Assembly (NCBI GenBank): GCA_963828465.1
Contig: CAWHEU010000022.1
Coordinates: 192,001-256,000 of the forward strand
DNA: 64,000 nt
From: an uncultured Acidobacteriota bacterium
Lineage (GTDB): Bacteria; Actinomycetota; Acidimicrobiia; Spongiisociales; ZC4RG35
Direction of reading: 5' to 3'
A program made the position numbers and the translations under genes. Below the pieces are notes generated by a model. It was not told where the DNA came from, did no database searches, and was given only the letters and a program-made list of their open reading frames with translations. Position 1 is the stretch's first letter; every line of letters starts with the position of its first letter. Below are positions 66-55,833 of this stretch, one piece after another.

Positions 66-749
66 ATGGCACAGATCGTGTTGATCGAGGATGACGTGGA
101 CATCAGACGGCTCGTCGCCGACGCGCTGGCGGCCCAGGGTCATGATGTCGAGAGCGCCGCTGCGGCCCTCGAAGGACTGCAGTTGACGGTGAAGGGAAAG
201 CCCGATCTGGTGGTCATGGACCTCGGCCTTCCCGACCTCGATGGCACCGAACTGTTGCGAATGATCCGGGCGGTGAGCCAGGTCCCGATCATCGTGATCA
301 CGGCCCGTGGCGCCGACGAAGTCGTCGTCCGAACCCTCGACTCGGGTGCCGACGACTACTTGGTCAAGCCGTTCTCGGTGGCCCAACTCGAGGCCCGGGT
401 GCGGGCCCTGCTGCGACGCGGGGCGGCCGCCGATTCCGGAGAGACGATTCGGATCGGCGACCTCATGATCGATGCGGCGGCACGTGAGGCGACGCTGGCC
501 GGCGAATCCATCGATCTGAGCCCGAAGGAATTCGATCTGCTCCGTGTACTGGCCGAGCGGGCGGGCGAGGTAGTCAGCAAGCGCGCTTTGATGGCAGAAG
601 TCTGGCGCGAGCCCTACGGAGGAGCTGAGCGGACGGTCGACGTCCATCTCTCCTGGCTCCGCAGCAAACTCGGCGAGACAGCGCAGGCGCCACGCTATCT
701 CCGCACGGTCCATGGGGTCGGGGTCAAACTGGTCGATCCCAACGGGTGA
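66..749 (+). CDS. OmpR/PhoB-family response regulator
   Basis: Receiver (IEDD, DLGLPDLDG, GADDYLVKPF) plus winged helix (RTVDVHLSWLRSKL, TVHGVG). Confidence 0.95.
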   Translation: MAQIVLIEDDVDIRRLVADALAAQGHDVESAAAALEGLQLTVKGKPDLVVMDLGLPDLDGTELLRMIRAVSQVPIIVITARGADEVVVRTLDSGADDYLVKPFSVAQLEARVRALLRRGAAADSGETIRIGDLMIDAAAREATLAGESIDLSPKEFDLLRVLAERAGEVVSKRALMAEVWREPYGGAERTVDVHLSWLRSKLGETAQAPRYLRTVHGVGVKLVDPNG

Positions 750-2021
750 GACGACGGCTCGCCCTCCTCAGCCTCGCTACCACGGCCCTCGTAGTCATTT
801 CTCTTCTCATCCCATTAGGCCTCCTGGTTCGGCGACAAGCAAGTGATCGGGCCCGGCTCGAGGCGGAGCGGACCGCGCAATCGACGGCTGCGCTCCTGGC
901 CCTGACCGTGAGCCTGAACGAGGACGCCGGCGCCATCGAATCGGCCCTGGGACCGCTCGACCCAGGAACCATCGTCGTGCTTCCGGACGGGTCTGTCCTC
1001 GGAGAGCCGACTACCGGTCAGGGCAGTCTCGTGGCGGTCGCCGTCGAGCGACAGGCGACGATCTCCGGAGTTGTCGAAGGTGGTTGGGAATATGCCCTTC
1101 CCGTCATAGGACTGGCGGGCACCGCAGTTGTCGATGTCTTCGTCACCGACGAGGCGCTCAGCGACGGTGTGGTCGAGGCGTGGCTCCTCTTGGCGCTGCT
1201 TGGGGTGTTGCTCGTTGCTATCGCGGTGTGGGTGGCGGATCGGCTGGGCGAGCGCCTGGTCCGGCCGATCAGCGACCTGGCCTCGGCCGCGAGGCAGCTT
1301 GGTGCGGGGGACCTCGATGCCCGGGTGCAAGTCAGCGAGCCCGAGGAGATACGAGAGGTAGGCGAGTCGTTCAACTGGCTGGCCGGGAGGCTCGAAGAGC
1401 TCATTGCCGAGGAGCGAGAGGCCGCCGCCGACCTGTCCCATCGATTACGGACGCCGCTGACATCGCTGAGACTCCAGGCGGAGAAGCTGACCGACGATGC
1501 CGAACGGGGGGAGGTCCTGGGTCAGGTGGATCGACTCGAGCAGGCCATCGACGAGCTGATAGTTGCCACCAGGTCTGCGCCTACAGGCCGGGGCGGTGTC
1601 TCCGATCTCTCCTCGGTGGTGTCGAGCGCGTTGCTCGTTCTGGGCGGTGCTGGCCGAGGAACAGAGGAGGGTGATGACGCTGAACGTGGATGATCACGGC
1701 CCGGTGGATCTATCGGGAGAAGCTGTGGAAGCCGTGGTGGACGCTCTGATCGGGAACGTCTTCTCCCACACGGATCCCGGCACCCCTTTCGACGTGACGT
1801 TGGGATCGGAGGATGGTCGGCCCTGGCTCGAAGTGAGCGACCAGGGGCCGGGATTCGCATCGAGGAGGCTGGCGGAGCGAGGTGTCAGCGGGGCTGGCTC
1901 CACCGGGCTCGGGCTCGACATCGTTCGACGGACCGCCGAATCGGCAGGTGGCGGCATGGAAATGAACGACCGCCCCGGTGGCGGGGCGGTCGTTCGGGTC
2001 TGGCTCGGGCCTTCGGACTAG
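746..2021 (+). CDS. HAMP-domain sensor histidine kinase (frameshift near 1628)
   Basis: Two TM helices, HAMP and H-box DLSHRLRTPL in ORF 746-1693; N/G boxes (LIGNVFSH, VSDQGPG, GSTGLGL) continue in ORF 1563-2021. Confidence 0.9.
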
Positions 2022-7930: not shown

Positions 7931-8503
7931 TCTGCGTCCCATAGGTCGTCCCTGTGTGTCCATGTAGAAGCCAATATCCACATCTCATCGGCCCTGCGAA
8001 CCACCGTCACCATCTCCGATTGCGAACCTTCTCCTCGGAAGGCACTCCGTCGATCCCCATCCAGACAACAAGACAATGATTCGTCCGATCTGAGGATCTC
8101 CGTTTGCACTAAACGGACATCCTCGATGGAAGGTCTCGCTGTGAAGTCCATGGCACCGAAGACTGTCACGCGCCGCGTCCAGCATCGCCTGCGTCCCCAC
8201 CACCTCACGTATCCGGTCCTCGTCCTGGTTGTAGATCCCCTCGAACCACCCGAACCAGAGCGCCCGCAGGATCTCCTCCGCTTCCCCGACCGTGGCGACG
8301 ATGTGGGTGTCTTCGGTGGTTGATGTCGTAGGTGGCGCACTGGTTGTCGTCACAAGAGTTGTCGTGGTCGTCTCGACCGCAATGGGCACAGTTGTAGGAG
8401 GGGGATCTGAGTTCTCCCGAGGCCACAGGGCCCAGATCCCGACTGCCAGACCCACGACGATCAGGCCTGCGACCAGCCATCGAATCACATCACGGTCGAA
8501 CAT
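7900..8503 (-). CDS. Membrane-anchored hypothetical protein with Thr-rich linker (frameshift near 8165)
   Basis: N-terminal TM, poly-Thr linker; C-terminus continues in ORF 7900-8340. Confidence 0.6.
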
Positions 8504-42925: not shown

Positions 42926-44327
42926 TCAGTCCTGCTCCTCCGGCGGTTTCACCGGCGGGTCACCTGGCGGCGGGTAGGACGGAGGCGATGGCGCTGATGC
43001 CTGGCCGAGAGGTTGCATGAGATCGTCGACACGGACGAAGAAAGCGGATGCCTCGCCTCGTGTCAATCTCCGATCCGGGCAGAATGAGTCCGGCCCACAC
43101 CCCTTGGTGATCCCGGCTTCGGCGAAAGCATCGATAGCCGATTCGGCCCAGTGTCGATTGTCGTCCGAGAAGGCATCGGGAACATCACGGGAGAGCCCCA
43201 GCGCCCTGACTGTCATCGCAGCGAACTCGGCACGAGTCAGAAGCCTGTCCGGGCAGAACGCCCTTGGGGCGCAGCCCGTGACGATGCCTTCGGCAGCGAG
43301 TCGGTTGATCGCATTCTGGAACGTGCTGTTCCCATCGTCTCTGAAGAAGTCCTTCGAGGTCGCAGGAAGGCCCATCACACGATGGAAGAAGGCGGCCGCC
43401 TCACCCCTGGTGATGGTTCGGTCAGGGCAGGCCAGGCGGTACCCGCATCCGAAAAGGAGCCCTCGGGCATGCAATTCGGTGAGGGCGGGCCTGAAGAGGC
43501 TCGAGTTGTCGTCCGTGAACGGGTCCATGCAGCCGACGCGGCCATGCGTCGACACCGCCACCTGATCCACTACCAGTGAGAGGCGATTCGGGGACGGCCA
43601 GTCTCCACCGAAGTAGACGTTGTGCCACATGTGGCGGATCCTGATGTTCGCATCGCCGGGGAACCGGTATGCGATGCCCTGCTCGTTGAATCTGAGCTTC
43701 CCGTCGAGCCAGCCGTCAAAGGATCCATTGCTGAGGGATGGGGCGTTCAGCTTGACGTGCCCCTCGATGCAATGCCAACGACCCTGCTCCAGTGAAGCCC
43801 CAGGCCACCAGAGATGCTCACCGCAGTCGCCCGGCTGATTTGCGTGATAGAGGTAGGTCCCGATCGGGATCCGGCCTCCGGGCACTCCTTCGGTTCCCGG
43901 GCTGCCGAATAGTCCTCGCGCGGACCAGCCGGGCGAGCCCCCGGTTGGTGGGATGCAACCCCGTCCGGATGACGAATAGAGGCCGGCCAGCCCGGGGAGC
44001 TTGCCGACGAAGGCGGCGTTCCAACTCAACAAGCGGATGTGATACCGATACCAGGCTTCCGTCGGTGCCGGCGCGAGCCTGTCGAGCGGGCCGAGGCCGC
44101 GGAACCCTCCCTCGGGAATGACGACCTCCAGGCCATTGCCTGCGAAGCCACCGTTCGTGATGCTGGTGCGGGACAGGTCGAGGGACCGGACGTCCACCAT
44201 GCCCTCGGTCCATGTGTCATCTTCGAAGCCCGTTTTCGACAATGATCTCCCCGGCTGCCGGGAGGGGCCCACCCAGGGCCAGGGCCACAACAACGGTGAC
44301 GAGCAGAGGGCCCGCTCTTCGGCTCAT
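42926..44327 (-). CDS. SLH-anchored PL14-like polysaccharide lyase (frameshift near 44240)
   Basis: GKLPGL, WSARG, YLYH, GRWHCIE..VKLN, NVYFGG; three SLH; signal peptide MSRRAGPLLVTVVVALAL in adjacent frame. Confidence 0.72.
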
Positions 44328-44432: not shown

Positions 44433-45716
44433 ATGCTGCGCAGGGTCCTCTCCGTCTTCCTCATGGCGCTGTTGCTCGTGCCGTTGGTCCCGGCGGGATC
44501 AGCCCTGGCCCAGGAGCAAACGACGTTCACCCCGGAGGGGGAGCTCGCCACTTACTCGACGAGTGTGGCCCGGCTCCAGGAAGCCCTAAAGGACAAGAAG
44601 TTTTACCGCGGCTCCATAGACGGTATCTACGGTGCGCAGACCCAGCAGGCGGTGATGGCCTTCCGCAAGGAGATCGGAGCGAGCCGCTCGTTCTCCTGGA
44701 GCGATTCGCACTGGGACGATCTCGAGCTCTACCAGGCCCCCTACACCAGGTTCGACGAGCCCGATCGGGTGGAGGTCAACCTGGACAAGCAGACCGCGCA
44801 CCTGTACCGCGGTGGGGCTCTGGTGGCCACGTTCCCGATCTCCTCGGGCAACGGTGAGACCTATCACGACAATGCCGGGAACCTGAAGCGGGCGGTGACC
44901 CCCACCGGCGACTTCGAGATCTACCGCCATGCCTCCGGTTGGTACGAGTCGACACTCGGTCTCGGGATGATGCTGAGCCCGTGGTTTTTCAACGGCGGCA
45001 TAGCCCTCCACGGGTCCCTCTCGGTGCCATCCGGGCCTGCATCACACGGGTGCATTCGCCTCACCACCTGGGACAGCGGTTTCCTCGACAGGTACGCATT
45101 CAGGGGGATGCCGGTCCACGTTTATTACGCCGACGATTCACCCGTCTATGGCAGCGACGGGCCTTTCGCAGACGTCCCGGCGAGCCACACCTTCGTGGCC
45201 GCTATCCAGTGGATGGTCGACACCGGCACCACCGACGGCTGCAGTCTCTATTTCTTCTGCCCCGACGCACCGGCGAGCCGCGGTCAGATCGCTGCCTTCA
45301 TGAGGCGGATATTGGGGCCGCATCTGGGGAATGGCCCGCCGGCGGAGTTCGCCGACACCGAGGGTCATCCGTTCGAGCGGGCAGTGGAATGGATGGCGGG
45401 CCTCGAGATAACCAAGGGTTGCAACCCGCCCGACAACACCTTGTTCTGCCCTGACCGGTCTGTGACTCGAGGTGAGATGGCCGCCATGTTCATGAGAGCG
45501 GGCGAGGAGTTGTTGGGGGTGAGCTCGGACAACGTGAACCTCGATCGCTTCCGCGACACCCGGGGTCACAACTTCCAGAAGGCTGCCGCCTGGATGGCGT
45601 CAGCCGGCGTCAGCCTCGGGTGCAACCCGCCGACCAATGATCAGTACTGCCCGGACACCAAGGTGACCCGAGCCCAGCTCTCCGCTTTCCTGAAGCGGAT
45701 CGTGGATCAGCTCTGA
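44433..45716 (+). CDS. L,D-transpeptidase with PG-binding and SLH domains
   Basis: IDGIYGAQTQQAVMAF, ALHG..PASHGCIRL, three SLH repeats. Confidence 0.9.
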   Translation: MLRRVLSVFLMALLLVPLVPAGSALAQEQTTFTPEGELATYSTSVARLQEALKDKKFYRGSIDGIYGAQTQQAVMAFRKEIGASRSFSWSDSHWDDLELYQAPYTRFDEPDRVEVNLDKQTAHLYRGGALVATFPISSGNGETYHDNAGNLKRAVTPTGDFEIYRHASGWYESTLGLGMMLSPWFFNGGIALHGSLSVPSGPASHGCIRLTTWDSGFLDRYAFRGMPVHVYYADDSPVYGSDGPFADVPASHTFVAAIQWMVDTGTTDGCSLYFFCPDAPASRGQIAAFMRRILGPHLGNGPPAEFADTEGHPFERAVEWMAGLEITKGCNPPDNTLFCPDRSVTRGEMAAMFMRAGEELLGVSSDNVNLDRFRDTRGHNFQKAAAWMASAGVSLGCNPPTNDQYCPDTKVTRAQLSAFLKRIVDQL

Positions 45717-46881: not shown

Positions 46882-48968
46882 TCAGAGGTCGAGGGCGCGT
46901 GTCAGGAAGGCCGCCATCTGGCCGCGAGTGACAGGCTGATCGGGGCAGAACTTCGTGTTGGCCGGCGGGTTGCAACCCAAGGTGACCCCAGCGGTGGCAA
47001 GTCGGTCGATCGCCGACTCGAAAACGCTTCGGTTGTCGTCGCTGAAGTGATTGCCGCCCCCGTCGTTGGTGTATCCCAGAGCCCGCACCAGGAAGGCCGC
47101 CATCTGGCCCCGAGTGACCGGCCGATCGGGGCAGTACTTCGTGTTGGCCGGCGGGTTGCAACCCAGCGTGACTGATGCGGTTGCCAGTCGGTCGATGGCG
47201 GCTTCGAAGACATGCCCGTTGTCATCCGTGAACTGGTCGCCGCCTCCGTCGTCGGTGTATCCCAAGGCGCGGACCAGGAAGGCCGCCATCTGGCCTCTGG
47301 TCACCGCATCCTTGGGGCAGAACGCGTCATTGAACGGCGGGTTGCACCCACGGGTGATCCCCGATGCTCCCAAGCGCTCGATGGCAGCGGTGAAGACGCT
47401 GTCGTCGTCGTCGAAAAAGAGACCATTGAAGGCGAGGGGCAACGGGTCGTCACAACTCTGATCGGGGCGGGCGAACCAGCGGGTGGGAGGGGCGTCGGTC
47501 GGTGTATTGCCGACGTGGACGACCAGCGACCCACTCGCCACTGAACACCTCGATATCTGCCCGGCCGTCACCGTCGTAATCGGCGGCGCCCAGCCCGCGA
47601 ACTTCATTGGCCGGGATCTCGACGTCGAATGACTGGTCCAGGGTCAGCCCGCCGCCCTGCAGATTCAGGACGTCGATTCTCGAACCCGAACTGTCGGGGT
47701 AGAGGGCGAACAACTCCGGAGTGGTTCCTCCGTCACGGTCGCCGGCCGCGATGTGAATCGGTGTACCACCTGGCATTGTTGCGTTTCTCAAGACGGTGCT
47801 GAGCCCGGGTCCTTTGAGAACGCGGAGAGTGCCACCCGGCCCTGCTTCCCAAACGTCGGCCCTGCGGTCACCGTCGAGATCTGCTCCGGCGAGGGCGACA
47901 TGATTTGGGTCGATGCCGGTGGAGAGGTTGGAGATGTCCTCGAAGCCGGAGGACACGCGACGCGACGGATGCAGTCACCGTCGAGCCAGTGTTGAACGCC
48001 ACGAGGTCCTGTCCGCTGTCAGCGTCGAGGTCCATGAACAGGATCCGGTCCGACCCAGCTATCGAAGCGTCGGGAAGGAACCACCGGTTCACCGAGCATT
48101 CCCCAAAGAGCATGGTTCCGGAGGCCACATCGATGACCGTGCCACCAGGATGGGCCCTGACGCCGGCCACGTCCGGTGCACCCTTGCCGGTCACGTCGGC
48201 GATGGTGAGCCGATATCGGTCGGTCACGGATGTGAACTCGGTGCGGTAGGTGGCAGCCGCCGATGCGAAAGGCCGTTTCGAAGTGACCGGAGGGAGGGGG
48301 GTCAGCGGGGATTCCGGGCCGCTGCCCGGGCCCATCCACGAAAAATGCATCGGGTCTTTGCTGAAGACCCAATCACCTCCCCAGCAGAATCCAGCGTCAC
48401 GCCATACGTCGACGTACCAGCCTGGCATGTTGGTGATCAGTCTGTTGTCGTCGCGCTGCGGGTTCTGCGCCGGATTGATGTCCACGGCGAGCCCGAGGCC
48501 GTGACGCGAGATCTGAGTGCTGCCGGCGATGGTGCGAGAGGTGAATCCGGACACGCTCCTGACCGTGTACGTATTTCCTTGCGCCGCCTGGGCCGCCAGG
48601 CCAGCGCTGACCCGACGGAAGGCGGGGAGTGCGAGACGGTGGACGCTCACCACTCTTCCCCCGCTGCCGGGCACCACCCATGGCGCGAGGTTGGCTCTGA
48701 CCTGTCCAATCGTTCTCCCGAAGTACGTGCCGAAGGGGCCGAGCACCGGCTCTGCAGAAGACAATCCTCCGGACTTGGAGGAATAGGGCGTCCTGGCAAA
48801 AGGGGCACCGCAACTCGCTGCCTCCGAGAAGCTGTTCCAGCGGGTCGATGTGTCGGATGATGGCTCTCCAGGCAGAGCCGGGACCATCACCAGGCCGAGG
48901 ATGATGCTGAGGGCGGCGAGCCCCGTCCTTCGCGATGCTGCGGAGGGCACCGATTCATGATGTCGCAT
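46882..48968 (-). CDS. M15-family peptidoglycan peptidase + FG-GAP-like repeats + three SLH (frameshifts near 47945 and 47540)
   Basis: SRHGLGLAVDINP, WGGDW..DPMHF; DLDGDRRAD/DYDGDGRAD repeats; SLH x3. Confidence 0.8.
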
Positions 48969-48993
48969 CTGGCGCCCTATGCGATCTGGCTGC

Positions 48994-50007
48994 TCAGTCG
49001 GATGCAGTGACCCGGGCTGTCGTCTCCTGCACGACAACGCCCGCCCATCGCCATACAGCGACCAACGTGTGGGTCCCGCCGGAGAACGTCATCGTCGACA
49101 CCCACGCCCGCTCGGCGATCGAGCCGTTGGTCCGGAGAGGGCGCGCCGACATCGACACCGGGTTCCCATCGAGGGTGAGGCGGAAACTGGTGTCGCCCGA
49201 CGTGAAGGCGGCCTCCTCCCCTGATCGATATGGGAGCACCTGAAACAGCCCTTCGTCGATGCGGTATTTGGTCCCGGCCCCGACGACGAGGCTGAGGGTG
49301 CAACGGCCACCGCCCCGGGAACAGGCCGAGCGATTCCACTCCGACAGCGGGACGACGATCCCGGGTATGGGGAGCTCGAGTGCCCGACGAACGAACCCGG
49401 CGCTCTGGGCCCTGGTCAAACGATCGTTGGGGCAATACCGATCGTTGGTCGGTGGATTGCAACCGAAGGTCCACCCCTGAGCGGCTACCCGGTTTATGGC
49501 GCCCTCGAGGACATGGCCGTCGTCGTCGACGAACCGGTCGCTGCTCGTTTCGGGCAGTTCGTAGGCGCGGGCCAGAAATGCGGCGAACTCGGCGCGTGTC
49601 AGCCCTCGGTTGGGGCAGAAGTTCGTGTTGGCCGGAGGGTTACACCCAAGCGTGATCTCCGCTTCGGCCAGGCGATTGATGGCGCCCTCGAGGGCATGCC
49701 CGTTGTCGTCGTCAAAGAAATCGTCGTCGCTCTCGGGCAGGTTCAGCGCCCTGGCGACGAAGGCAGCGGCCTGGGCCCGAGTCATGGTGTCGTCGGGGCA
49801 ATAGCGATTGTTCGTCGGGGGATTGCATCCGAAGGTGATGCCGGCATTGGCGATCGCCTCGATCCCGTTCTCCAACGGGTGCCCGTTGTCGTCGGTGAAG
49901 CGGCCACTGACGGTGAGGGCTTCGGCGCGGCCCGGGAAGAGGGTCATAACGATGGCAACCAGCGCCACCACGGTCACAGAGACGAGGACCCTTCTCCGGG
50001 CGATCAT
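48994..50007 (-). CDS. S-layer homology domain protein with unknown C-terminal beta domain
   Basis: Signal peptide, three GCNPP.N..CP..TRA SLH repeats. Confidence 0.85.
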   Translation of the reverse strand: MIARRRVLVSVTVVALVAIVMTLFPGRAEALTVSGRFTDDNGHPLENGIEAIANAGITFGCNPPTNNRYCPDDTMTRAQAAAFVARALNLPESDDDFFDDDNGHALEGAINRLAEAEITLGCNPPANTNFCPNRGLTRAEFAAFLARAYELPETSSDRFVDDDGHVLEGAINRVAAQGWTFGCNPPTNDRYCPNDRLTRAQSAGFVRRALELPIPGIVVPLSEWNRSACSRGGGRCTLSLVVGAGTKYRIDEGLFQVLPYRSGEEAAFTSGDTSFRLTLDGNPVSMSARPLRTNGSIAERAWVSTMTFSGGTHTLVAVWRWAGVVVQETTARVTASD

Positions 50008-50462
50008 TCGATCTCCAGCGTCTCGAGCACGGCGTTCACGCTGGGAAGGATGTCTGCGCGATCGACGTGGGAGCCGAGGACGACGTAGAGACAGAAGGCG
50101 CGACCATTCTGGGTGAAGAATCGCTGCAGACCGGACTGGCCCGGCATCGCACGTTGCAGCGCGTTGCGATCGAACTCGCGGGCCGCGAGCTGACGGGGTA
50201 TCCCCTCGGCTTCGAACAGAGGTGTTCCGGCACTCTCCGGGCCGTATTCGAAAAGAGTCATGAACACATCGGTGCCATTCATCAGCTCCACCGCACCGGT
50301 GCCGAATGAACCGCGTTCGGGGGGCAGCGGGAAGGAGGCCAAGTGCATGACGGTCGGCTCCACGGCGCCGTCGGATTGGAGTTGGAAGTCGCCCCCCGAG
50401 ATCGAACCTTCCCAGTCGTCAGGGACCTCGACTGCGATCCCGCTGCGGGTCAATTGAGGCAA
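50004..50462 (-). CDS. Conserved hypothetical protein of the mau-like cassette
   Basis: HLASFPLP, LFEYGP, QRFFT.NGRAFCLYVVLG; tightly coupled to neighbours; TTG start inferred. Confidence 0.7.
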   Translation of the reverse strand: MPQLTRSGIAVEVPDDWEGSISGGDFQLQSDGAVEPTVMHLASFPLPPERGSFGTGAVELMNGTDVFMTLFEYGPESAGTPLFEAEGIPRQLAAREFDRNALQRAMPGQSGLQRFFTQNGRAFCLYVVLGSHVDRADILPSVNAVLETLEIE

Positions 50463-50463
50463 C

Positions 50464-51165
50464 TCAGGATCCCTTCTCGAGCGGGTTCGAGTAGAGCGAC
50501 GGGTCGCCTGGCTCGATGCCGGCCTGACGGAGTTGCTGATCGGTGAATTCCTCGCGGCCGGACGGGTCGAGGCGGACCGGCACCGCATCGCGAGCAGACT
50601 GGCGGAGGAGCCCGAGAAGGTGCCGCCAGCTCGAGGCGGCGCCCTCGCCGATGACCATCCCCTGGCCGTCGACGAGGAGGAAATATGGGGTCATCGGGAC
50701 CCGGAACGTCTCCCAGGTCTCGTCCGACATGATCAAAGGGACCCGAGGTGGCGCCATGTCGACCAACTTGGCTGCCGATTCGGACCCAGGGCCTTTGGTG
50801 ACGATCACAGTCCGCGTGTCGGGCATGGGCAACTCGAAATCGCCCTGAAACTCGGTCCAGAACGTCTGGCAACTCAGGCAGCCCGAGGAGAGGAACGCCA
50901 CCAAAGTGTTGCCCCGGCCGTGGACCAGGCTCATGCTCTGATCGGCGCCATCGAGCCCTACCCCACGCAGCGTGTTGGATGGGGCCTTCTCGAAACCTGT
51001 GGTCTTGGGTCTGGTCTGGGGCGTCCCCACCGTGACCGCCCCCTCCTCGGTTACGCCGAGCGCGGCGAGTTGTCGGAGGATCTCGGCATGGCTCTTGAGC
51101 AGTCCGGCGACGAGGATGGCGAGGAGGATGATCACCACGCCTTCGATGATGACAATCGCCGTCAT
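50464..51165 (-). CDS. MauD-like membrane-anchored thioredoxin-fold protein
   Basis: N-terminal TM, FLSSGCLSC (CxxC), cis-Pro TPYF. Confidence 0.78.
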   Translation of the reverse strand: MTAIVIIEGVVIILLAILVAGLLKSHAEILRQLAALGVTEEGAVTVGTPQTRPKTTGFEKAPSNTLRGVGLDGADQSMSLVHGRGNTLVAFLSSGCLSCQTFWTEFQGDFELPMPDTRTVIVTKGPGSESAAKLVDMAPPRVPLIMSDETWETFRVPMTPYFLLVDGQGMVIGEGAASSWRHLLGLLRQSARDAVPVRLDPSGREEFTDQQLRQAGIEPGDPSLYSNPLEKGS

Positions 51166-52482
51166 CAGGCGTTCCGTCCCCAGGTCAACGGGAAACCATT
51201 CCCGCCGAAGGTGAAGGTGGTGGACGCAGTTGACCCGATATTGCGAATCGTCCACGTGCCGGCGTTGAACCAGCCGACCCCGGCGCGGCCATCGCCGTCC
51301 CAGTCGCCGGTGACAGGCCTGCCGTTGCCGGCGAGGGTGAAGTCGCGGTCCGCTGGGCCGGCTGACACCGCGTTGCGCAGGATCCACCGGTCCCCTCGCA
51401 CGACGCCGATCCCGGTGTGGCCGTCACCGTTCCAGTCCCCGACCACGGGGATGTCGCCTGGTTGGCCGAATACGAAGTCGATGTCGGGTTCTCCCGCACG
51501 GTTCGAATTGCGCAGCAGCCATCTGTTGCCCCGCACCACTCCGATCGTGTGGACGCCGTTGCCGTTCCAGTCCCCGACGACCGGGATGTCGCCCGGTCTC
51601 CCGTACTCGATCACGAGATTGGGGCTGCCCGGGCCTTCCACTTGACGGAGGAACCAGACGAGGTTGCCGACACCGGCCACGCCATGACGGGTGTTGCGCA
51701 CCATCCCGATGGTCCTCACCCCGGCGTTCGAGAAGTCCCCGGCTACCGGGTAGTCCCCTGGTAGGCCGAAGTCGAAGGTCTGGTTGGCTCCTCCACTGCT
51801 CAATGCATTGCGTAGCTGGAACGTGGTGCCGCTGACGACAGCCGGCCGGGCGCGGTAAGGGCCCTTGGGGGTGGTGTCGGGGAGCAGTCCTGCGGCGTTG
51901 TGGCTGTATGTCGACTGGGACACGGCGCTCGTTGTGGTGCAGGTCGAGTCCCATTCCCAGGGAGGAACGCAGGTGACCACCCGACAGGTGATAGGCCCGA
52001 TGCAAGGGAGGTCGTTGTTGCACTGGCCGTAACGGAACCGGGTGCAGCACACCTTGCGTTCGCTGCAATTGTCGTGGTTGCACTGGCAGTTGCAGTTCAC
52101 GCACGAGTCGGAGCAGGTGCCCGAGCCGCCGCAGCTGCATCCACCGCAATCCGCCGCGTTGCAGTCCATGTAGTAGCGACTCCGACCGTCGCAGAAGGTG
52201 TTGCCTTCGGCCCGCCACCATCCGGCGACCACGTTCCCGGGTGGGCAGGTGTTGACCCCGTGGATGTTGCAGCAGAAATCGGTCCAGCCATCGTTGCATC
52301 TGGCCCCGCCGCCGCATTGGCTCGGCACGACGGCGCCGTAGGCGCTGCCTGGACGAAGGATGTAGGCGGCCGGCGCCGCGACAAGAGCGGTGCCGACCAT
52401 GGCCGCACGGCGGAGGAAGCCGCGGCGCGAGCGTGCGGGTGTCGAGAGCGCGGCTCGCGGCGGCGACGAGTCGCGTGCTCAT
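51165..52482 (-). CDS. Tat-exported Cys-rich (MauA-like) protein with C-terminal FG-GAP/VCBS-like repeats (frameshift near 52430)
   Basis: SRRGFL after removing one base; 23 Cys in ~125 aa including CPPG..GWW..YYMDC; four GD.P..GDW.G.G-type repeats. Confidence 0.78.
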
Positions 52483-52989
52483 TCGGTCCGGGTCAAGGCC
52501 ATGGTTTGAGGTAGGCGGGATAGGAGGAGGTAGGCAAGGTAGACCCCGATGGCGACAAAGACGACATAGGCGATGAGGGTCGACATGGAGTCATCGGTCG
52601 GAATGACGGCTGTCCCGGTGATCGCAACGACACCGAGGGCGATCAGACTGACGACATTGAAGCCGAAATGGAACCAGGACGGAGGGGTGTCCTCCCGCCC
52701 GAAACAGCCGCAACTCTGGATGGGAAGGTCGGCCCGCAGGGCCAGCCACGTAAATGCGGCGAACCCCGCATAGAGCACCACGGCCGCCCGTTACCCAAGG
52801 CCCACCCAGGATCAAACCGACTACCGAAACCGCCACCTCGACAAGCCCCAAGATCCGGACGACAGATTTCGACGAGGGGAGGCGAGCAGCGCGCAAGGCG
52901 CCGACGGTTGGGACTGGATCCGCCATCTTGGCCATCCCGGCCAACCCGAGCAGGCCGAGAGCTATGGCGGCGACGGCTGCGGCGACCAC
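52479..52989 (-). CDS. MauE/DoxX-family membrane protein (frameshift near 52785)
   Basis: LAGMAK, LGLVE, SCGCFG, multiple TM helices. Confidence 0.85.
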
Positions 52990-53075
52990 GAGGCGAGAGT
53001 AGTGCTGATGCTCTGGATCGCCGGAATCCCCCCGAAAGTATGTCTACCCGCCTCGGGAGCTTTACCATTTCTCCG

Positions 53076-53984
53076 GTGTCAGCATCACAATCGAGCCATC
53101 TCCGCGCCCTCGAATCGGAGTCGATTCACATCATCCGCGAAGCTGTCGCCGAATCGGAGAACCCTGTTCTCCTCTTCTCCGGGGGCAAGGACTCCGCCCT
53201 CGTCCTGCGACTCGCTGTAAAGGCGTTCTGGCCTGCGCGTCTTCCCTTCCCGGTCATGCACGTCGATACCGGGCACAACTTCGATGAGGTGCTCGAGTTC
53301 AGGGATCGGATCGTGACCGAGCTCGAGGCCGATCTCATCGTCGCTTCGGTCCAGGAGGCCATCGACCAAGGCCGGGTGGTCGAAGAAACCGGGCCCCGGG
53401 CTTCCCGGAACCGTCTTCAGACCGAGACCCTCCTCAACGCGATCGACAAGCATCGTTTCGACGTGGTCTTCGGTGGGGCGCGCCGTGACGAGGAGAAAGC
53501 TCGGGCGAAGGAGCGGGTGTTCTCGTTCCGGGACGAGTTCGGCCAATGGGACCCCAAGAGCCAGAGGCCTGAGCTCTGGTCCCTCTACAACGGACGGCAT
53601 CGCAAGGGCGAGCACATGCGGGTCTTCCCGATCTCGAACTGGACGGAGATGGACGTCTGGCAGTACATCGAAGATGAGGGGATCGAGTTGCCTTCGGTCT
53701 ATTTCTCGCATCGCCGGCGTGTCTTCGAGCGGGACGGGATGCTCATGGCCGAGTCGCCCTATCTCAATCTCATCGACGGCGAGGAGGTGTTCGAGGCCAT
53801 CGTGCGGTTCCGGACCGTGGGAGACATGACCTGCACCGGTGGGTTCGAGTCCACCGCCTCGTCAGTCGGGGAGATCATCGAGGAGGTGGCCGTCACACGG
53901 ATCACCGAGCGTGGCGCCAGCCGTGCCGACGATCGAACCGCCGAGGCCGCCATGGAGGATCGGAAGCGGGAGGGCTACTTCTGA
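53076..53984 (+). CDS. cysD: Sulfate adenylyltransferase subunit 2
   Basis: LESESIHIIRE, FSGGKDS, GGARRDEEKARAKER, MEDRKREGYF. Confidence 0.96.
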   Translation: MSASQSSHLRALESESIHIIREAVAESENPVLLFSGGKDSALVLRLAVKAFWPARLPFPVMHVDTGHNFDEVLEFRDRIVTELEADLIVASVQEAIDQGRVVEETGPRASRNRLQTETLLNAIDKHRFDVVFGGARRDEEKARAKERVFSFRDEFGQWDPKSQRPELWSLYNGRHRKGEHMRVFPISNWTEMDVWQYIEDEGIELPSVYFSHRRRVFERDGMLMAESPYLNLIDGEEVFEAIVRFRTVGDMTCTGGFESTASSVGEIIEEVAVTRITERGASRADDRTAEAAMEDRKREGYF

Positions 53985-55243
53985 TGACCGAACTGGTGCG
54001 CATCGCAACCACCGGGTCTGTCGACGACGGAAAGAGCACCCTGATCGGTCGGCTCCTCTTCGACTCCAAGCAGATCTTCCAGGACCAGCTCGAGGCGGTG
54101 GAGGACGCCAGCCGCAAGCGCGGCACCGACTACGTCGACCTGGCCCTGCTCACCGATGGCCTCCGCGCCGAGCGGGAGCAAGGGATCACCATCGATGTCG
54201 CCTATCGCTATTTCGCGACACCGAAGCGAAAGTTCGTCCTGGCCGACACCCCCGGTCACATCCAGTACACACGGAACATGGTCACCGGGTCATCGACGGC
54301 GAACATCGCTCTAATCCTGGTGGATGCAAGGCAGGGCATCCTCGAGCAGACCAGACGTCACTCCTTTCTCGCCTCTCTCCTGGGCGTCCCCCATCTGGTG
54401 TTGTGCGTCAACAAGATGGACCTCGTCGACTGGTCCCAGGAGCGCTTCGACGAGCTGGTCGACGAGTTCCGTCAGTTCGCCAACCGACTCGAAATACACG
54501 ATCTGCGGTTCGTGCCGGTGTCGGCCCTCGAGGGTGACAATGTGGTGAACCAGTCGCTGAACATGCCCTGGTACCACGGCCCGACTGTCCTCGAGTTGCT
54601 CGAGGACATTCACATCGGCAGCGATCAGAACATGATCGATGTGAGATTCCCGATCCAGTACGTCATCCGGCCCCATCGGCGGGAGTACCAGGATTTCAGG
54701 GGCTACGCCGGCAAGATCGCCGGAGGGCTGATCAAAAGGGGCGACGAGGTAATGGTCCTTCCCAGCGGCTTCACGACCACGATCCGCTCGATCGAGACCT
54801 TTGACGGACCGCTGGAAGAGGCGGCGCCTCCCAGCTCGGTGGTGATCACCCTCGATGACGACATCGACGTATCGCGGGGGGACATGTTGTGCCGACCACA
54901 CAATCAGCCTCACGCCTCTCAGGACATCGACGCCATGGTGGCCTGGATGTCGGATGGGCCTCCACTGAGGGTCGGCGCCAAATACGCCATCAAGCACACG
55001 ACACGTTGGGGGAAGGCCATGGTGCGGGACTTTCAATACCGCCTCGACGTCAACACCCTGCATCGTGACGAGTCATCGGATTCGCTCGGCTTGAACGAGA
55101 TCGGTCGGGTCAGGCTCCGCTCCACCACGCCTTTCTTCTTCGACGAGTACCGCCGCAATCGTGAGACGGGTTCATTCGTACTCGTCGACGAATCGAGCAA
55201 CGTCACGGTGGGGGCGGGGATGATCACCGGTGAGGGGTCGTGA
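53984..55243 (+). CDS. cysN: Sulfate adenylyltransferase subunit 1
   Basis: [29 protein letters not shown]. Confidence 0.96.
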
Positions 55244-55833
55244 GCGAGAACGTTGTCTGGCATCGCGGGTCGGTGACGCCACCGGATCGGGCGGAGGCGA
55301 CCGGCGGCGAGGGCGTGACCGTGTGGATGACGGGTCTCTCGGGCAGCGGGAAGTCGACAATCGCCTACTCGGCCGAGATGATGCTGGTACAGGCCGGCCG
55401 GGCCGCCTATGTCCTCGACGGGGACAACCTGCGTCACGGCCTCAATTCCGATCTCGGGTTCGCGGCGGCGGACCGCAGCGAGAACGTGAGACGGGTGGGT
55501 GAGGTGGCTCGCCTCATGGCTGATGCAGGTCTCGTCGTGTTGGTCCCTGTCATCTCACCGTTCGCCTCAGACCGGAAGATGGTGCGCGAGGCACATGAGG
55601 AGGCAGGACTGGCCTTTGTCGAAGTGTTCGTCGACGCCTCGCTCGAGGTATGCGAACGGCGAGATCCCAAGGGCCTCTACGCCCGTGCACGTGCCGGCGA
55701 GATCGAAGACATGACCGGGATCGATTCCCCCTACGAGGCACCCGAGAGTCCGGATCTGAGACTGGATTCCGAAGGCACCTCAGCGGAGAAACTGGCCGCT
55801 CAAATCGTCGAGGCGGTAGGCACCGGATCATGA
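55240..55833 (+). CDS. cysC: Adenylyl-sulfate kinase
   Basis: [35 protein letters not shown]. Confidence 0.96.

Follow-up and report, generated by a model that had tools for sequence, protein, structure and literature searches.

The 64,000-nucleotide stretch of DNA analysed here (part of contig CAWHEU010000022.1, assembly GCA_963828465.1; hereafter the window) carries on its minus strand a run of six genes. They encode a MauE-like membrane protein, a Cys-rich protein with a signal for twin-arginine translocation (Tat), a MauD-like protein, a small conserved protein that we call hyp, a protein with S-layer-homology (SLH) repeats, and an M15 peptidase (Table 1). The window genome comprises 3.07 Mb in 29 contigs and is 92.3% complete and 4.8% contaminated. 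By the source names of its closest protein matches, it belongs to Acidimicrobiia. An earlier description of the locus, made from the letters without database searches and referred to below as the sequence-only reading, had proposed six tightly packed genes, a Mau-like maturation cassette co-transcribed with genes for SLH proteins. Coordinates and junctions confirm the packing: the MauE stop overlaps the Tat-protein start in ATGA, the Tat-protein stop and the MauD-like start overlap by 1 nt in TGATG, the MauD-like stop and the hyp start read TGA-G-TTG, hyp and the SLH-protein gene again share an ATGA, and a spacer of 25 nt separates the SLH-protein stop from the peptidase ATG (48968). The listed genes and motifs (SCGCFG, CLSC, SRRGFLRR, SLH, M15) are likewise present, but it had gone unnoticed that three of the six genes, those for MauE, the Tat protein and the peptidase, are interrupted in the window by single extra bases. 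A Pfam scan assigned no family to the Tat protein, the MauD-like protein or hyp.

Table 1. Genes of the cassette locus, in window coordinates
Feature	Position	Strand	Evidence and remarks
MauE-like four-helix membrane protein	52479..52989	-	PF07291 in two frames, SCGCFG; split by extra base ~52782
Tat-signal Cys-rich protein, 438 aa in orthologues	51165..52482	-	leader with SRRGFLRR, Cys-rich domain, FG-GAP-like repeats; split ~52432
MauD-like protein, 233 aa	50464..51165	-	N-terminal membrane helix, thioredoxin-like part with CLSC
Small conserved protein hyp, 152 aa	50004..50462	-	TTG start; predicted PsbP/Mog1-like sandwich fold
SLH protein, 337 aa	48994..50007	-	N-terminal anchor or signal, three SLH-like repeats, C-terminal domain without assigned kind
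M15 peptidase	46882..48968	-	Peptidase_M15_4, FG-GAP repeats, three SLH-like repeats; split at 47953 and 47536

For comparison, we located and annotated the mau cluster of Paracoccus denitrificans in NC_008688, where the order is mauF-B-E-D-A-amicyanin-J-G. Judged by profile comparison, both the MauE-like and the MauD-like protein are genuinely homologous to their Paracoccus counterparts, though the MauD-like protein is not an equivalent of MauD, and the proposal of a Mau-derived cassette is borne out. The two pieces of the interrupted MauE gene match PF07291 at 19.7 bits (N-terminal) and 32.9 bits (C-terminal; cut-off 27), and the intact orthologue in the sister genome G012 reaches 54.4 bits over profile positions 5-126 of 128. 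Its CXC motif, followed by F-G, reads SCGCFG and is also found in the fusion protein P0125. A recent preprint reports that two MauE proteins substitute for DsbB in E. coli, with a CXC active site followed by FG, and that MauA is present in only 10% of MauE-bearing species (10.64898/2026.03.05.709764). Against TIGR02661, the MauD equivalog profile, the window protein scores 16.5 bits, below the cut-off of 188.6; the profile matches eight of nine members of the MauD-like family (best E 1.5e-10), all well under the cut-off. Alignment with Paracoccus MauD by hhalign gives 95.8% and E 7.2e-9; it spans 104 columns, the CxxC motif among them. Profiles of the MauD-like protein and of hyp found no match among PDB sequences, and a tblastn search of plasmids with a MauE orthologue found none either.

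Where the sequence-only reading was right to name MauE and MauD, it missed two further Mau-like elements, a MauF homologue belonging to the ancestral set and a MauA-like Tat leader. A MauF relative sits between the MauD-like and hyp genes in 51 of 80 related loci. There is no MauF in the window, and the only MauF-like gene of the genome lies on another contig, C24; the encoded membrane protein resembles Paracoccus MauF (BLASTP E 4e-8, 30% over 165 aa) and has the motif STWSPCG in common with it. The window cassette has lost MauF, a member of the ancestral set. For one protein of the MauF-like kind, a faint resemblance to DsbD was detected (E 5.6e-4). On C24 (locus L002), the MauF-like gene (605-1423, plus strand) is convergent with a DoxX_2/MauE-related gene (1414-1785, minus strand; PF13564, 100.6 bits) whose product has no CXC motif, and the two genes overlap slightly.

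The Cys-rich gene is tied to mauE and mauD, as had been supposed. Among 12 loci from relatives, nine have the order MauE-Cys-MauD-hyp, two (L025 and L028) are arranged otherwise, and L031 is cut by a contig end. When genomes were scanned at one per species, at least 589 relatives came to light; the best 80 loci were taken, all with titles of metagenome-assembled genomes (MAGs) and mostly from Acidimicrobiia. With the set restricted to the 53 loci whose flanks measure 1 kb or more upstream and 3.5 kb or more downstream, all four genes occur together in 52: 47 in the order MauE-Cys-MauD-hyp and five otherwise ordered, the remaining locus having the Cys-rich gene alone. In an even draw across the phylum (301 genomes, including the unpublished G305), the domain was found in 23 genomes, 17 of them outside the window's taxonomic order and belonging to at least eight families. 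MauE, the Cys-rich gene and the MauD-like, MauF-like and hyp genes were together in all 12 loci sampled phylum-wide, ordered E-Cys-D-F-hyp in six and E-D-F-hyp-Cys in five; in the twelfth, MauF lies 2.7 kb off on the other strand. From these gene neighbourhoods, the conserved unit is MauE, the Cys-rich protein, MauD, the MauF-like protein and hyp. In one Acidimicrobiia lineage, moreover, MauE is fused to the whole Cys-rich precursor in a protein of 624 aa, with seven members on separate contigs. Another fusion, P0188, looks frame-shifted and was dropped as evidence. The P0125 fusion has four membrane helices and then an internal twin-arginine leader, the layout described for actinobacterial Rieske proteins as dual Sec/Tat membrane proteins (PMC5449189).

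The orthologues of the Tat protein begin MSTRLVAAASRALDT.TSRRGFLRR; the N-region of this leader is conserved, and a Cys-rich domain of 150 residues follows. All 23 Cys of the protein as read lie within its first 185 residues, and the last 238 residues, consisting of FG-GAP-like repeats, contain none. Pfam and NCBIfam scans of the protein found nothing beyond the TAT signal and no family for the domain at E up to 10; searches of PDB chains with the domain as a single sequence, as a profile and as a 56-aa core gave nothing meaningful, and a search of the ESM Atlas gave no usable match. The family is large, its profile matching at least 536 representative clusters at E ≤ 0.001, 215 of them at ≤ 1e-30. 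Across 54 aligned members, 14 Cys, a GWW pair, a Y-x-DC motif and the motif FRYGQC are invariant or nearly so. An AlphaFold model of the domain has a mean predicted local distance difference test (pLDDT) score of 75, with 85-92 in the core. The modules that follow the domain vary: among 91 clusters scanned we found LGFP in 32, CWB2 in seven, SLH in four, DUF4214 in four, FG-GAP_3 above cut-off in four, and a ricin lectin and a tectonin module in one each. A cell-envelope role, already suggested from the letters, fits the wall-binding modules (LGFP, CWB2, SLH) that other lineages have fused to the same domain. The C-terminal FG-GAP-like unit is also greatly expanded in G034, G018, G003 and other relatives, with up to 66 matches per genome in many proteins.

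A search with a profile of the methylamine dehydrogenase (MADH) light chain, MauA, had been suggested as a check, and its outcome is divided. The MauA families PF02975 and TIGR02659 are not matched by the window domain, and PF02975 matches none of the 54 aligned members and none of the 91 scanned; as a control of the MauA profile, Paracoccus MauA scores 399 bits. Compared profile to profile, by contrast, the Cys-rich family resembles a 38-sequence MauA profile (hhalign 96.9%, E 1.4e-10, 85 columns), the matching columns being the N-region of the leader, the twin-arginine motif and the first mature motif, DG..CC.G...CPPGT. A hidden Markov model (HMM) of the MauA leader, run over 37,246 open reading frames from the whole window genome and ten related loci, placed Cys-rich family proteins at ranks 1-4 (best E 3.1e-4) and had proteins of all ten loci within its top 24. 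Foldseek searches with the domain model gave no match at E ≤ 0.001; among the weak rows, 24 of the 47 listed are light chains of aromatic amine dehydrogenase (AADH) or MADH, all at E 3 to 9. The leader match is specific. By these comparisons the precursor thus looks MauA-derived at its front end, and most of the mature domain is not demonstrably MauA.

The sequence-only reading had listed a hypothetical gene among the six but missed its role: hyp belongs to the core set and is the predicted binding partner of the Cys-rich domain. Its gene begins immediately downstream of the MauD-like gene or, in relatives, of MauF, so that a signal peptide could not be accommodated. The structural model of hyp is of high confidence (pLDDT 94.5, predicted template modelling score 0.89), and its best structural matches form one group, PsbP/Mog1-like, at middling Z. 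Co-folded with precursor residues 1-199, hyp gave a complex score of 0.91 (runs 0.90, 0.91 and 0.91), the best control reaching 0.00; at least 94% of the contacts were common to the runs, and the pLDDT of the partner was at least 93. Of 80 solved complexes, 58 attained the same mark, as did two of 110 mismatched pairs, figures that are approximate, our own alignments having been used. The predicted contacts on the mature domain are residues 146-153, 155-159 and 182-191, including FRYGQC. We had considered hyp as a binder of the Tat leader and dropped the idea, as the model places the contacts on the mature domain and none on the leader; an identity with MauJ was ruled out (hhalign 0.09%).

The absence of mauB and mauG from the window, pointed out in the sequence-only reading, holds, and it extends to the whole window genome, in which profile searches for MauB (PF06433), MauG or cytochrome c peroxidase (CCP; PF03150) and MauA (PF02975) found no match at its 92.3% completeness. 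PF02975 and PF06433 both succeeded as positive controls on the Paracoccus plasmid (PF06433 at E 2.4e-212). In the window genome and 40 relatives, a set that includes the unpublished genomes G018, G027 and G038, MauB was found in none of the 41, and MauG/CCP in two (G028 and G031), for neither of which a match to the Cys-rich N-domain is listed. No co-occurrence of these genes with the cassette, as in a canonical amine dehydrogenase system, was thus seen.

We consider it probable that the locus encodes a Mau-derived maturation and export module dedicated to one substrate, a Tat-exported Cys-rich extracellular protein, and that it is not an amine dehydrogenase. This reading is based on the homology of MauE, MauD and MauF, the conserved linkage, the lack of a MauB or MauG match and the predicted complex; the redox roles and the order of events we infer. 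A dedicated module for oxidative folding and export is the simplest account, since MauE is reported to be able to replace DsbB and to have a CXC active site (10.64898/2026.03.05.709764). In such a scheme, the precursor with its MauA-like leader would be met in the cytoplasm by hyp, which would bind the Cys-rich domain on its FRYGQC-bearing face and would then serve as a holding chaperone or else leave through Tat together with the precursor, as a second subunit. Outside the membrane, MauE may act as a DsbB-like, quinone-linked oxidase by way of its CGC-FG loop, with the membrane-anchored, thioredoxin-like MauD as its partner, and the two would jointly form the many disulfides. The MauF-like protein may provide the opposite flow of electrons for disulfide shuffling. 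The mature protein would then be held at the wall by its repeat domain, accompanied in the window's subclade by the SLH proteins encoded downstream.

Several points weigh against this reading. Every step of the mechanism rests on computation, and the complex score is the model's own confidence. With the leaders removed, the match to MauA shrinks to 22 columns at E 0.0042 (reversed control 0.4), and mature MauA and the mature Cys-rich family, compared HMM to sequence, score at background (0.0 and 5.6 bits; reversed, -5.7 and 1.7). The window cassette is without MauF, so that MauF must be dispensable in cis. The window genome also encodes a DsbB homologue, so MauE is not required as the sole oxidase and there is room for a general role. 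The Tat pathway exports folded proteins, which is odd if disulfides form only after export, and MauA poses the same puzzle. If the breaks in the window genes were genuine, the window's copy of the cassette would be dead, though the family would not.

An unlikely alternative is that the Cys-rich domain is a very divergent catalytic subunit of MauA type, with a quinone or cross-link derived from Trp or Cys and made without MauG, the PsbP-like protein replacing MauB, which would make the product a wall-bound redox enzyme. The front-end alignment with MauA and the specificity of the leader match speak for it, as do the three Mau accessory homologues (E, D and F) around the Cys-rich gene, the AADH and MADH light chains that head the weak Foldseek list (24 of the 47 rows shown, E 3 to 9) and the strong predicted heterodimer with hyp. 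The GWW pair and the Asp of Y-x-DC, invariant in the 54 members, presumably lie near the quinone Trp and the active-site Asp of MauA. Against this alternative, the position corresponding to the second Trp of tryptophan tryptophylquinone (TTQ) is variable on inspection of a low-stringency alignment of low confidence, PF02975 matches no member of either set, the leader-trimmed profile match is only 22 columns long, and no gene for a MauG/CCP, a flavoprotein or a radical-SAM protein was seen in the cassette. We hold it equally doubtful, in a fuller version, that a new two-subunit extracellular protein has arisen from methylamine dehydrogenase, with a MauA-derived light chain and a PsbP-like partner, the replacement of the MauB propeller, carried together by Tat, matured by MauE, MauD and MauF and given a cross-linked or quinone-type cofactor without MauG. 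If that were true, monoderm Actinomycetota would gain a wall-anchored redox enzyme.

Alternatively, MauE, MauD and MauF could be a general extracytoplasmic disulfide system that serves all exported Cys proteins, SLH repeats included, the Cys-rich protein being merely its most demanding client. MauE has been argued to be a generalist in the preprint (10.64898/2026.03.05.709764). Many SLH-like repeats of the window carry a Cys pair, and a search of the window genome for VKOR found none. Nevertheless, we think this improbable: a DsbB homologue is encoded elsewhere in the genome, the domain occurs in only 23 of 301 genomes of the phylum with Mau genes beside it in all 12 loci examined, the linkage is kept though the gene order varies, and one lineage has joined MauE and the Cys-rich precursor in a single protein.

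It seems very improbable that the domain instead acquires a metal or an iron-sulfur cluster while still in the cytoplasm, with hyp as an assembly chaperone and the Mau proteins protecting or tuning thiols outside. Binding of a cluster or metal in the cytoplasm would account for use of the Tat route, the variable middle of the domain has dense CxC and CxxC runs, and hyp, which its sequence marks as cytoplasmic, is predicted to bind the domain in its folded state. The metal-like runs, however, fall in the least conserved stretch and are deleted in several members, no ferredoxin-type family is matched, and a partner of oxidase type such as MauE favours disulfides. Hardly credible, finally, is a secreted antibacterial or wall-active toxin with hyp as an immunity protein acting before export, which would fit the tight predicted binding of hyp and the variable, wall- or glycan-binding tails of the family but not the lack of a toxin family match, nor the single copy per genome, stable synteny and vertical-looking spread, which are unlike polymorphic toxin loci.

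Read as a dedicated maturation and export module, the cassette can be set beside several known systems. Like the Paracoccus mau cluster, it joins MauE, MauD and MauF homologues to a Cys-rich precursor that is exported by Tat and whose long leader is similar, and in the order E-D-F-hyp-Cys the precursor is downstream of E and D, as mauA is. Unlike that cluster, it is without MauB, MauG, amicyanin and MauJ and has an extra PsbP-like partner, and its mature domain, unlike MauA, has no PF02975 or TIGR02659 match and is fused to repeat or wall-binding domains. The MauE proteins of the preprint are similar in their CXC loop with FG, four helices, occurrence without MauA and proposed thioredoxin-fold intermediary such as MauD; they are described there as generalists, from Calditrichota and Thermodesulfobacteriota, whereas the cassette MauE is tied to one client phylum-wide and once fused to it (10.64898/2026.03.05.709764). 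The Streptomyces candidates of decRiPPter are a further actinobacterial parallel, with mauE and mauD, without other mau genes, beside a gene for a Cys-rich product (at least 8 Cys); by their text description, their proposed precursors are short peptides, unlike the 438-aa Tat protein with its conserved domain of 150 residues, and the two sets could overlap (PMC7794033).

Established systems offer looser parallels. As in the DsbB-DsbA and DsbD-DsbC pairs of E. coli, the cassette would combine a membrane oxidase with a carrier of thioredoxin fold and, possibly, another membrane protein for a branch that reduces or isomerises, but these come from other protein families and would be dedicated to a substrate, not general. 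As a signal-less cytoplasmic protein that is encoded next to its predicted binding partner, a Tat substrate, hyp recalls the proofreading chaperones TorD, DmsD and NapD and the hitchhiking of hydrogenase small and large subunits. Unlike TorD, DmsD and NapD, hyp is predicted to sit on the mature domain and not on the signal peptide, and its predicted fold is PsbP/Mog1-like.

A full-text literature search found no account of the five-gene cassette. MauE is newly proposed as a third bacterial route to disulfides, and the module would provide it with a natural client encoded in the same locus, along with a partner of thioredoxin fold and perhaps a reducing branch, which could be tested jointly. 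It also brings new objects: a Cys-rich family (at least 536 clusters) that has no Pfam entry or clear solved fold, a partner protein with a confidently predicted complex, and a five-gene set kept in every phylum-wide locus examined, in several families of Actinomycetota. Should the domain turn out to be a MauA descendant with its own chemistry, a periplasmic dehydrogenase system would have been rebuilt for the surface of a monoderm.

As to the interrupted genes, the extra base at ~52782 makes MauE go on in another frame, that at ~52432 puts the ATG of the Tat protein (52482) out of frame with its own twin-arginine motif, and those at 47953 and 47536 shift the peptidase frame; a fifth, at 53028, lies upstream of MauE, which starts at GTG 52989, or at ATG 53068 if this base is an error too. 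The sister genome G012, whose DNA is 97% identical, has none of the five and encodes intact proteins of 195, 438 and 777 aa. Contigs from three soil DNA runs omit one base at 47537/47540, 47951/47953, 52431/52432 and 52782, and one run (X3) additionally omits a base at 53029. Compared with G012, the window shows 216 indel events scattered over all 64 kb; among 42 isolated indels of lengths other than multiples of three, seven disrupt a window frame, two disrupt a G012 frame, and 33 are unclear. Since isolated indels occur all along the 64 kb and the bases in question are missing from G012 and the soil contigs, the four gene-breaking insertions are most likely assembly errors and not decay of the cassette locus. 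Isolated single-base indels are found in both assemblies, for example one that splits CysN of G012 at window position 54596, and false frameshifts are therefore to be expected in gene calls from either. The MauF-like gene of a relative (locus L055, a long-read-style MAG) is split across two frames at ~8056-8066, the same type of error.

The SLH protein and the peptidase, which the sequence-only reading had taken to be co-transcribed with the cassette, do not belong to its core. They are, on the neighbourhoods compared, lineage-specific additions. The SLH gene is linked in a subclade only: of 60 loci with enough sequence beyond hyp, 21 have a full-length relative of the SLH protein directly after it, all in the clade nearer the window, and an M15 peptidase is downstream of the cassette in only five loci. 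Their domains are well supported, with SLH (PF00395) at 36.5 bits in the 337-aa protein and 37.2 bits in the peptidase (cut-off 20.8), and with Peptidase_M15_4 (PF13539) at 54.2 bits (cut-off 25) and FG-GAP_3 at 30 bits in the latter. Each of the three SLH-like repeats of the 337-aa protein has a Cys pair (GC...CP). A conserved pair of this kind is found in the SLH-like repeats of at least four proteins of the window, at 42926-44293 (-), 44433-45716 (+), 46882-47607 (-) and 48994-50007 (-), and classical SLH domains have no Cys at its positions; the pattern of residues suggests one disulfide per SLH-like repeat at the cell surface. By its motif SHGCIR, the protein at 44433-45716 (+) resembles an L,D-transpeptidase.

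Lastly, scans of the locus for promoters and terminators gave results at the level of chance, with one promoter-like site against 0.5 expected and four terminator-like sites against 3.5. Contigs of one metatranscriptome, 90-95% alike, reach 18 of 30 bins and include a 151-nt piece spanning the MauD/hyp junction; they derive from relatives and such libraries can contain DNA, which means that transcription cannot be inferred from them. The downstream neighbour of the cassette is a convergent aminopeptidase-like gene, and the upstream neighbour is CysD, which is divergent. CysD belongs to a group of genes for sulfate activation, with CysN and a gene judged by eye to be APS-kinase-like, at 52668-55833 on the plus strand of the window. 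Its adjacency may be a coincidence, or the supply of cysteine may be linked to the Cys-rich product. CysD is syntenic in eight of the 80 related loci, among them L036-L039, L055, L056, L059 and L066.

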